A stretch of 13,270 nt of DNA from a virus. Taxonomy: Duplodnaviria; Heunggongvirae; Uroviricota; Caudoviricetes. The stretch lies in IMG/VR virus record IMGVR_UViG_2526164667_000024, one strand, 5' to 3'. Position numbers: made by a program. Positions 6,001 through 9,000 of this stretch are shown piece after piece (position 1 is the first letter of the stretch; each line of letters starts with the position of its first letter).

Positions 6001-9000
6001 CAGCACGGTGGTGGTGAACACGGTGGCCTCTGAAAATCCGGATGAAGCCGGTCGTTACAGCATGGACGTTGAGTACGGTCAGTACAGCGTCATTCTGTTG
6101 GTGGAAGGATTCCCGCCGTCACATGCCGGGACCATCACCGTGTATGAAGATTCTCAACCCGGTACGCTGAATGATTTTCTCGGTGCCATGTCGGAGGATG
6201 ACGTCCGGCCGGAGGCACTGCGCCGTTTTGAACTGATGGTGGAAGAGGTGGCGCGTCACGCTGAGGAGGCGAAGAAGAATGCCGGAGAGGCGGAGACGTC
6301 AGCGAGGAATGCCGGCATATCAGCCAGTCAGGCAGAAGAGAGCGCTGCAAATGCTGACACTTCAGCAGGGGAGGCATCGGAGTCAGCCCGGCAGGCGGCA
6401 GAAAGTGCAGCCTCAGCAAAGCAGTCAGAGGATGCGTCCTCGTCCTCGGCTTCTGCGGCCGCTCAAAAAGCCAGTGAGTCATCACAAAGTGCAGCAGAAG
6501 CTGAATTGTCAAGAAAGACGGCAGAAAGTGCAGCCGGTAATGCAGCCAGGGATGCAACGACCGCAACAGAAAAAGCCCGGGAGTCAGCAGAAAGCGCACA
6601 GTCAGCGGAACAAAGCAGGATAGCGGCGGAAGAGGCCGTAAACCGAATCCCCACCGTGGTGGGGCCTCCCGGGCCAAAGGGGGAACCGGGGCCCGCGGGT
6701 CCTCAGGGGCCGAAGGGTGATAAGGGAGAGCGTGGTGACACCGGTCCTGTCGGGGCAACCGGTGAACGGGGACCGGCAGGTGATGCTGGTCCGGCAGGCC
6801 CGCAGGGGCCGAAAGGCGACAGGGGAGAGCGGGGAGAGACCGGTCTGACGGGAAATGCAGGTCCACAGGGTCCAAAGGGAGATACCGGTGCGGCAGGCCC
6901 GGCAGGCCCACAGGGACCGAAAGGAGAAACAGGTGCGGCTGGCCCGGTGGGGGCAACCGGACCTCAGGGACCGAAGGGCGACCCGGGGGAGACACAAATA
7001 CGGTTCCGTCTGGGGCCGGGAAACATTATTGAGACAAACAGCAATGGCTGGTTCCCGGATACAGATGGCGCACTCATCACCGGACTGACCTTTCTTGACC
7101 CCAAAGATGCCACACGGGTTCAGGGTTTTTTTCAGCATTTGCAGGTCAGGTTTGGTGACGGGCCGTGGCAGGATGTCAAGGGGCTGGATGAAGTGGGCAG
7201 TGATACAGGCAGAACAGGAGAATGACATGAATATACTAAAAAAACTTATGCAGCGTCTGTGTGGTTGCGGAAAGCATGATGGCCGTGAACACGTGCAGTC
7301 GCTTACAGCACAACTGCGACTGGGGCCGGCAGACATCCTGGAGTCAGATGAGAATGGCATTATTCCGGAGCAGGACAGGGTAATCACACAGGTGGTGATA
7401 CTGGATACAGATAAAAAGCTGATACAGTGTGTGGTAAGACCGCTGCAAATCCTGCGTGCTGACGGGACGTGGGAAAATATTGGCGGGATGAAGTAACCCG
7501 ACAGCTTCACAAAACCGGAGTCCGGCTCCGGTTTTTGTTGTCATGTCATGGTGATGTTTGTTAAGAAAGTAAAGATTGATTCATTTTGAAGGTTGAAATG
7601 TATGCTATCACCATCTTCTGTAAATTTGGGGTGTTCATGGAATTCTTTAACCAGAAACCTGACTTCTCCTGACAGTCGTATTTTATCCTCTGTAAGGGAT
7701 GCAGCTGCTAGCTCGGATAATGGGGCGCAAGTAAAGGTGGGCAACAGAACATATCGTGTTGTTGTCACTGATAATAAGTTTTGCGTTACAAGAGAAAGTC
7801 ATAGTGGTTGCTTTACTAATCTGTTGCACAGGCTGGGATGGCCTAAGGGAGAGATTAGCAGGAAAATTGAGGTGATGCTGAATTCATCGCCAGTGAATAG
7901 GGCTATGGAAAGAGGTGCTGTTCATTCGAATAGACCTGATTTACCTCCTGTTGATTATGCACCGCCAGAGTTACCGAGTGTGGACTATAACAGCTTGCCT
8001 GTGCCTGGTAATGTTATTGGCAAAGGGGGTAACGCTGTAGTATATGAAGATGCTGAGGATGCAACAAAAGTCCTGAAGATGTTTACTACATCTCAAAGCA
8101 ATGAAGAGGTAACAAACGAAGTTCGTTGCTTCAACCAATATTATGGTGCCGGGAGTGCAGAAAAAATATATGGCGATAATGGCGATATTATTGGTATTAG
8201 AATGGATAAAATAAATGGAGAATCGCTTTTAAATATTTCGTCCTTGCCGGCACAGGCTGAGCATGCCATTTATGATATGTTTGACAGGCTTGAGCAAAAA
8301 GGAATTCTTTTTATCGATACAACAGAGACAAATGTCTTATATGATCGCACGAGAAATGAATTTAATCCAATAGATATATCATCTTATAATATTTCTGAAC
8401 GTTCATGGAGTGAAAATCAAATAATGCAATCTTATCATGGAGGAAAGCAAGATCTTATTAGTGTGGTATTAAGTAAAATTTAGTAATTTTATCCAGTGTA
8501 GTGGATTTGTTGCATGGATGGAGTTGGTAAAAAGTGGTGTGGCTGGCAATCCAGGCCGCGTCACAGAAATGGACAATGCCGCTGAGAGACTGGCGAATGG
8601 CATACAGGCACCAGAAAAATTTCAGACATGACATAATGCCCATGCCAGAAGTTCTTTTTGCACCTCGCCTGTATTTATAGATAAATATAGAGTGAATGAA
8701 TGAGATATGAAAGACATTACCCTTCCCCCCCGACGTCCGCGTCCTGTCTGACAGGGGCCATATCTGTAAATACTGAAGCTGTATTATCTCCCATGCAACA
8801 CACTTCAGCCTTACATGTAAGAGATTTTGCTTCCCTGTGCTCACAGAACCTCAAAGCTAATGTATTGCTAAATAGTGATGACCACGAAGTACCTATACAT
8901 CAGAAAAATCCTGCTGCAATAATGCAAAATATCGACTCTAACATCAAACAGATGGCAACAGACTGGGGGATGTCGATTGAGGAGGTTGAGGTTATTATAG

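Follow-up and report, generated by a model that had tools for sequence, protein, structure and literature searches.

What is encoded by the short open reading frame (ORF) that starts a single nucleotide behind the side tail fibre gene of a lambdoid prophage, and does its product serve the fibre? The question was raised by IMG/VR record IMGVR_UViG_2526164667_000024 (Caudoviricetes), a stretch of 13 270 nucleotides (nt) that was analysed in full and is referred to below as the window. A first-pass annotation, made from the sequence alone, had placed an ORF of 89 amino acids (aa) at positions 7227-7496, one nucleotide past the fibre stop codon and behind a well-placed AGGAG, and both the ORF and this arrangement were borne out. 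By sequence comparison the product is paralogous to the terminal knob of the fibre but free-standing, with 27 residues of its own, and purifying selection on it is as strong as on the knob itself. Such a gene, whose one recognized domain is the fibre C-terminal domain PfC, always follows PfC-tipped collagen-like fibre genes in lambdoid prophages and in short-tailed Shiga-toxin (Stx) phages of E. coli. We tentatively propose that it specifies a separately translated, trimeric accessory knob that accompanies the lateral fibre.

Identity of the small ORF

Profile searches, which the first-pass annotation had proposed as a check, returned full-length matches to two families. Pfam PF06820 (Phage_fiber_C, PfC) matched residues 28-89 over the whole model (1-64/64, E 1.8e-34) with a score of 118.4 bits against a gathering cut-off of 25, and PHROG 576 covered residues 1-89/89 (E 2.1e-58). 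The product had been called unidentified; it is a whole PF06820 protein, is named 'phage tail fiber C-terminal domain-containing protein' by the Prokaryotic Genome Annotation Pipeline (PGAP), and has been remarked on as ORF68 of phage Sp5. PF06820 was the sole Pfam match at E<=0.1, with none to Caudo_TAP or another chaperone family, and the earlier remark that the product is unlike lambda Tfa holds. No match to the small ORF was found in NCBIfam, and no sequence relative of it in the PDB.

The fibre gene ends in a PfC domain of its own, which is trailed by an 11-aa tail. When the small ORF was compared with residues 366-427 of the fibre (its PfC) by BLASTP, 35% aa identity was obtained (E 2e-11), and the two PfC segments were ~56% identical in DNA. 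Fibres of this architecture were named EPclA by Ghosh et al. (PMC3368898). The PfC of EPclA (e.g. ECs2717) is the same full-length PF06820 domain as that of the small ORF, but the identity is only 35%; the small ORF is free-standing rather than placed at the end of a collagen shaft, carries an additional 27-residue segment with a predicted helix and a Cys/His stretch, and lacks the 11-residue tail. The deduced protein is MNILKKLMQRLCGCGKHDGREHVQSLTAQLRLGPADILESDENGIIPEQDRVITQVVILDTDKKLIQCVVRPLQILRADGTWENIGGMK (89 aa). In low-confidence AlphaFold2 (AF2) models a helix was placed at residues 3-12, followed by about six strands. A lipoprotein or signal-peptide reading of MNILKKLMQRLCGC was rejected by eye, the N-terminus being charged and without a hydrophobic core, with Cys at -2.

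Intactness and selection

Two samples of loci were used. The first comprised 82 loci fetched with the small ORF as query and is biased by that choice; the second, unbiased sample comprised 80 loci fetched with the fibre's PfC as query, 73 of them with enough downstream sequence. All 89 codons were retained in 82/82 loci of the biased sample. In the unbiased sample, an intact 89-aa ORF starting 1 nt after the TGA was present in 71 of the 73 assessable loci, and the only two disrupted copies (L152, L160) were frameshifted at or adjoining the A7 homopolymer in the first codons of the ORF. This run was kept in 80/82 loci of the biased sample and was broken in two, which carried TTGAGAAAG. Conservation in related prophages, on which the first-pass annotation had left its ORF to depend, was thus found.

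Silent divergence in the unbiased set was ample (pS 0.13). The ratio of non-synonymous to silent divergence (pN/pS) was 0.19 for the whole small ORF, 0.35 for its N-terminal 27 codons and 0.10 for its PfC part, compared with 0.11 for the fibre's own PfC; the two other frames of the small ORF, taken as a control, gave 1.8 and 1.3. In the biased set the value for the small ORF was 0.13. The small ORF had also been suspected of being a frame-separated remnant of the fibre C-terminus. Its relationship to the fibre C-terminus stands, with 35% identity, but a decaying remnant does not agree with 71/73 intact copies and purifying selection.

A CGCGKHDGREH motif had been pointed out as a possible metal-binding patch. 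The motif is present, and C12, G13, G15, K16, H17, D18 and E21 were invariant among 153 copies, while C14 was retained in 146/153 and H22 in just 123/153. Intact copies differ at C14 and H22, so that a fixed four-ligand metal site is unlikely, and the metal-binding part of the claim finds weak support. A strict C2H2 site (C-x-C-x2-H-x4-H) was weakened by the same variation, though Cys12 and His17 are strictly kept.

Published data on the domain and its orthologues

PfC was described as a beta-rich self-trimerising knob by Ghosh et al. (PMC3368898). Recombinant EPclA is a trimer, and so is the isolated PfC domain by size-exclusion chromatography with multi-angle laser light scattering (SEC-MALLS), which also re-nucleates the collagen helix after heating; in both cases the small protein was absent (PMC3368898). 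The unknown genes of Sp5 were deleted systematically by Mondal et al. (PMC5155283). The fibre gene, ORF67, was essential; ORF68 was among the non-essential late genes, and its deletion was viable. The same authors saw no frameshift signal and suggested that ORF68 is a reservoir for fibre variation (PMC5155283).

In a preprint on phage phi24B (10.64898/2026.04.10.717836), the fibre gp61 was assigned to six lateral fibres, and its C-terminal knob was considered probably not to be the BamA binder. Two peptides unique to gp59, ADGTWENIGGMK and VITQVVILDADKK, are given in the proteome supplement for purified virions (10.64898/2026.04.10.717836). The small protein is therefore made and is at least present, at a low level, in a purified virion preparation.

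Sp5 ORF68, phi24B gp59 and PHROG 576 represent the same gene as the small ORF (89 aa, 90-100% aa identity). Sp5 ORF68 and phi24B gp59 also share its place, with a PfC-tipped collagen-like fibre gene 1 nt ahead and the same terminator next. The preceding gene differs, being here that of a 439-aa EPclA-type siphoviral side fibre and in the Sp5/phi24B type that of a 645-aa EPclB-type podoviral fibre.

Start signals and operon end

A single base, C at 7226, separates the fibre stop from the putative ATG at 7227-7229. The 1-nt gap together with the AGGAG gives a layout that would suit translational coupling, as the first-pass annotation had argued, the putative start at 7227 being read from this layout. 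The frame is open 5' as far as TTG 7095, and a further in-frame ATG upstream would give a 103-aa product; in some records gene callers take an upstream ATG, as reflected in the 102-aa clusters P0006 and P0008. The junction GGAGAATGACATG was unchanged in 78/82 loci of the sample picked by the small-ORF query. Two of the remaining four carried a synonymous GAA->GAG change, and two an IS66-family insertion just 5'. In the latter (L050, L063) the end of the IS66-family transposase lies directly before ...GAATGACATG, so that the small ORF is cut off from the fibre gene yet intact.

Right after the small ORF, a hairpin with a U-run resembling an intrinsic terminator was found (dG -21.2 kcal/mol, z -5.0; equally stable shuffles 0/200). 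From the strength of this hairpin and its U-run, the small ORF is taken to be the final gene of the tail operon. The small ORF and the terminator are flanked by an imperfect 18-nt inverted repeat (7213-7230 / 7541-7558, 78% complementary), which is probably due to chance.

Distribution and relatives

In 297 phage records the small ORF and its junction recurred at 92-97% DNA identity, carriers including the long-tailed lambdoid phage 2B8 and the short-tailed Stx phages Sp5/VT2-Sakai, 933W, Stx2 II and AU6Stx1. Among 5426 complete E. coli genomes, 698 were positive, with 7453 copies in total and a median of 12 per positive genome. The order of small ORF after PfC-tipped fibre held in L001, L002 and 150+ loci. 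Protein searches placed the small ORF in E. coli, E. albertii and Citrobacter rodentium only; the C. rodentium copies, truncated and situated in a decayed remnant, are of little informative value. When 1.84 billion representatives were searched with a profile, 81 proteins were returned, nearly all of them E. coli fragments, and the family is therefore very narrow. No informative distant member with a known function was present among the 81.

In five loci (L012, L013, L002, L019, L047) the 3' part of the small ORF is partially repeated ~975 nt downstream, and in five others (L007, L009, L065, L070, L071) ~710 nt downstream. These partial second copies were 84-90% identical, and one group continues into the terminator. 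These copies suggest repeated insertion or recombination at the operon end.

Exchange of the fibre tip by deletion

Near the start of each PfC-coding segment lies a copy of the 10-nt direct repeat CTGGGGCCGG, which in the fibre encodes L-G-P. The copies are 310 nt apart, so that deletion between them joins the two reading frames. The product of exactly such a deletion was found in E. coli OkiPb01713 (NZ_AP042682.1; locus L164, 1433-2707), where an uninterrupted 425-aa fibre ends ...IRFRLGPADILESDENG...GGMK, its own knob having been replaced by one of the small-ORF type through deletion between the repeats. PGAP lists this locus as a frameshifted pseudogene and a partial coding sequence. The swap junction was present in 1/5426 complete genomes (together ~7450 copies) and in none of ~290 IMG/VR copies. 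In-frame fusion of the ORF to the fibre in related prophages, raised as a check in the first-pass annotation, was accordingly found in one genome, and no in-frame link existed in 151/155 loci, the other four being two insertion sequence (IS) insertions and two frameshifted copies. A tip swap can happen, and the resulting gene is intact. Such swaps are very rare, run in one direction only, and do not account for selection on the start and the N-terminus.

Two further hybrids were recorded. In P0121 (92 aa) the small-ORF N-terminus (residues 1-40) is joined to the C-terminal half of the fibre knob, and in P0066 (95 aa; L083) collagen GERGPA is joined directly to small-ORF ADILESD, on a contig that begins inside the collagen region. 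A diversity-generating retroelement or an invertible cassette was rejected: the only inverted pair is the weak one of 18 nt, the PfC copies are ~56% identical in DNA, and no recombinase or reverse transcriptase gene lies between J and the effector genes. As in the invertible S-U segments of Mu and P1, a second tip-coding segment is kept beside the fibre gene, and one natural in-frame hybrid is at hand (L164). Unlike in Mu and P1, no invertase is present, the second copy has its own start and shares the strand of the first, and a rare irreversible deletion is the only rearrangement that was seen.

Proposed role and alternatives

In the proposal that we favour, the small ORF would be translated separately as a late protein, from its own AGGAG and ATG and ahead of the operon terminator. 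The product would form a homotrimeric knob of ~30 kDa with three short arms, each consisting of the N-terminal helix and the Cys/His stretch. This knob would travel with the lateral fibre as a dispensable accessory and would dock at or near the fibre end, most plausibly via the arms, providing a second, differently surfaced tip that may modulate adsorption. The homotrimer is most likely, by extrapolation from the 35%-identical fibre PfC; docking on the fibre and a role in receptor binding are inferred. Separate late translation is the only step that rests on data, the start codon and the coupling being read from the layout. The distant protein P0144 (565 aa, in the representative library), which combines collagen Gly-X-Y repeats with a tandem array of four PfC-like domains (…VVVLDADAKTATGQMGILQVRRADGTWMEIPALKG…), shows stacked knobs to be a natural arrangement and speaks for the proposal. 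Of the roles offered in the first-pass annotation, that of a distal fibre tip partner would thus be the preferred one. For the accessory knob as a whole, with its mechanism inferred, our confidence falls somewhat short of even.

Several observations weigh against this proposal. AF2 monomer predictions from two alignments (7 and 29 sequences) reached mean confidence scores (pLDDT) of only 55 and 50. No defect was reported for the ORF68 deletion on K-12 (PMC5155283). The phi24B supplement gives 3 spectra for each gp59 peptide, compared with 38 and 47 for the fibre knob and tail peptides, and gp59 would therefore be sub-stoichiometric or a contaminant; the gp59 entry is labelled 'Spike or just gp59?' by the authors, and Lom and Bor, likewise detected in that proteome, were classed as contaminants (10.64898/2026.04.10.717836). 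In the window, unlike around the Sp5 and phi24B copies, the gene for the tip attachment protein J has an in-frame stop at 2523-2525, which splits it into ORFs 1656-2525 and 2538-5180 in the same frame. This prophage copy is probably defective, and because of the nonsense codon the small ORF may be idle in it.

In a more specific form of the accessory knob, which we regard as unlikely, the tip is split between two genes: the free PfC trimer would dock by arms formed of the helix and Cys12/His17 on the fibre knob or the 11-residue tail behind it, a metal might sit on the three-fold axis, and the outer surface of the stacked double knob would contact the cell in nature, e.g. on O-antigen-bearing hosts. 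If true, it would explain the ~12 copies per genome of enterohaemorrhagic E. coli (EHEC) despite dispensability on K-12. The small ORF might instead encode an assembly helper. Its place directly 3' of the fibre gene, with apparent coupling, is that of the tail-fibre assembly proteins (lambda Tfa, Mu Tfa/U, T4 gp38; Caudo_TAP), some of which remain bound at the fibre tip. A free PfC of the same fold family as the collagen-nucleating domain could template or nucleate trimerisation of the fibre C-terminus, or prevent mis-pairing among the numerous fibre alleles of a single cell, in a manner like that of Tfa or gp38 though unrelated to them, and the low abundance in virions fits a mostly non-structural role. 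We consider this quite unlikely: recombinant EPclA and isolated PfC trimerise and refold fast without the small protein (PMC3368898), the ORF68 deletion was not among the essential or reduced-infectivity mutants (PMC5155283), and Pfam gave no similarity to chaperone families. Unlike Tfa and gp38, to which it has no sequence relationship, the small protein is non-essential, the fibre folds without it, and its own paralogue is the fibre tip. The chaperone role allowed for in the first-pass annotation is weakened by the self-trimerisation of fibre and PfC (PMC3368898) and by the viable deletion (PMC5155283). A free soluble knob could also act off the virion, for instance as a decoy on a cell-surface ligand after lysis, guarding progeny from debris or excluding superinfection. 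Dispensability for plaque formation and lysogeny, a small self-assembling domain of binding type made late, and an at most sub-stoichiometric presence in virions would suit such a role, but the N-terminus, MNILKKLMQRL, is charged and has no signal peptide or lipobox, and at 35% identity the ligand need not be common to both knobs; we hold the idea to be improbable.

That the small ORF is mainly an intragenomic reservoir of spare tips, from which the fibre knob is exchanged by recombination or deletion, was suggested for Sp5 ORF68 (PMC5155283), and is in our estimate rather unlikely. It is favoured by the shared 10-nt repeats between which deletion restores the frame, by the natural occurrence of the exact product in L164, by the chimeras P0066 and P0121, and by ~12 copies per genome as ample substrate. 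The swap junction is nevertheless confined to 1 of 5426 genomes and 0 of ~290 IMG/VR copies, the swap is a one-way deletion, and ~56% DNA identity is too low for homologous exchange; moreover, a silent cassette needs no conserved Shine-Dalgarno sequence, ATG or N-terminal 27 codons, and would show neither pN/pS of 0.35 and 0.10 in its own frame nor peptides. A programmed +1 frameshift from the fibre into the small-ORF frame, producing a longer fibre with an alternative tip, is not supported and is very improbable. GenBank KU977420 (AU6Stx1) annotates 'atfT, alternate tail fiber tip' on this basis; AtfT is the same ORF with its start placed further 5', at an ATG equivalent to window position 7107, and its annotation presumes a fusion that tests on the window and its relatives do not support. 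The small-ORF frame is indeed +1 relative to the fibre and open from 7095, with a shift-prone CCC AAA G at 7100-7106, and two hypothetical fusions were in the search database of the phi24B authors (10.64898/2026.04.10.717836). However, in 12/~77 loci the small ORF is intact even though a TGA interrupts the +1 frame 14 codons 5' of the ATG, the overlap in the +1 frame gave a pN/pS of 1.17, and a shift at 7100 would halve the first PfC domain. In folding, the RNA 3' of CCC AAA G does not surpass its shuffles (z -0.2), and a search for Rfam elements was negative. Judged from the sequence and general knowledge, GAA-UGA-C leaves no good option for re-pairing in +1, and the P-site codon is overlapped by the AGGAG. 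Mondal et al. saw no frameshift signal (PMC5155283), and the accessible part of the phi24B supplement has no junction peptide and 47 spectra for the normal fibre C-terminal peptide. Least credible is a dead duplication remnant that hitch-hikes with the fibre gene: the Sp5 orthologue is dispensable, the C. rodentium copies are truncated in a decayed remnant and truncated database entries are numerous, but this explanation is largely refuted by the selection analysis (71/73 copies intact, pN/pS 0.10-0.19 with pS 0.13), by the conserved Shine-Dalgarno sequence and ATG, and by the orthologue's peptides in the phi24B data. Among all of these, the accessory knob is the reading that we retain.

Prophage context

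The window is a lambdoid prophage of attaching-effacing E. coli, and PGAP annotates identical regions likewise. K/I-like tail assembly genes, J and Lom lie 5' of the fibre gene; 3' of the terminator follow NleH, Cif, an IS3-family transposase and NleG (table 1). The terminator segment 7511-7563 is repeated at 10373-10427 (83.6% identity over 55 nt, ~2.9 kb downstream). The NleH and Cif genes lie between both terminator copies, as though this cargo had come in by an insertion that duplicated the end of the operon.

Table 1. Positions of the features in the window.
Feature	Position	Strand	Basis or remark
Collagen-like side tail fibre gene, 439 aa, EPclA architecture (PfN, coiled coil, collagen Gly-X-Y, PfC)	5906-7225	+	Pfam PF08400, PF01391, PF06820
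PfC domain no. 1, C-terminal knob of the fibre (aa 365-428)	6998-7189	+	PF06820 1-64/64, E 5e-35
CTGGGGCCGG, 10-nt direct repeat, copy 1, start of fibre PfC (codons L-G-P)	7010-7019	+	sequence
Second in-frame upstream ATG, giving a putative 103-aa product	7188-7190	+	sequence
AGGAG Shine-Dalgarno sequence of the small ORF, within the final fibre codons, 6 nt 5' of the ATG	7216-7220	+	sequence
TGA stop of the fibre gene	7223-7225	+	sequence
Small ORF, 89 aa and stop, predicted free-standing PfC-domain protein	7227-7496	+	ORF call, profile matches, selection
N-terminal 27 codons found in the small ORF alone, with a short helix predicted (aa 3-12) ahead of the Cys/His stretch	7227-7307	+	AF2, low confidence
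A7 homopolymer, codons 4-6 of the small ORF	7238-7244	+	sequence
CGCGKHDGREH motif, aa 12-22	7260-7292	+	sequence
PfC domain no. 2 (aa 28-89), paralogous to the knob of the fibre	7308-7493	+	PF06820
CTGGGGCCGG, 10-nt direct repeat, copy 2, start of small-ORF PfC	7320-7329	+	sequence
Intrinsic-terminator-like hairpin and U-run, right after the small ORF	7511-7543	+	folding
NleH and Cif effector genes	7593-8483 and 8700-9554		between terminator copies
IS3-family transposase (rve domains)	10500-11405	-	past second terminator copy
NleG effector gene	11782-12384	+	past second terminator copy

Significance

The small ORF was already known: it is annotated, thousands of copies are deposited in public genomes, and one GenBank record and at least two papers draw attention to it. 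Added here are measurements of selection in an unbiased set of loci, evidence that speaks against the frameshift as annotated, the tip-swap mechanism with its single natural example, and the link to the peptide evidence in the phi24B supplement. Should the product be only a compact self-trimerising module, it would be of practical interest as a nucleator for recombinant collagen. In the biology of these phages, the gene follows the lateral fibre gene in both long- and short-tailed phages of EHEC and enteropathogenic E. coli, Shiga-toxin phages included, at about a dozen copies per genome. If it supplies a second tip or modulates adsorption, it would bear on the host range of phages that carry toxins and effectors.

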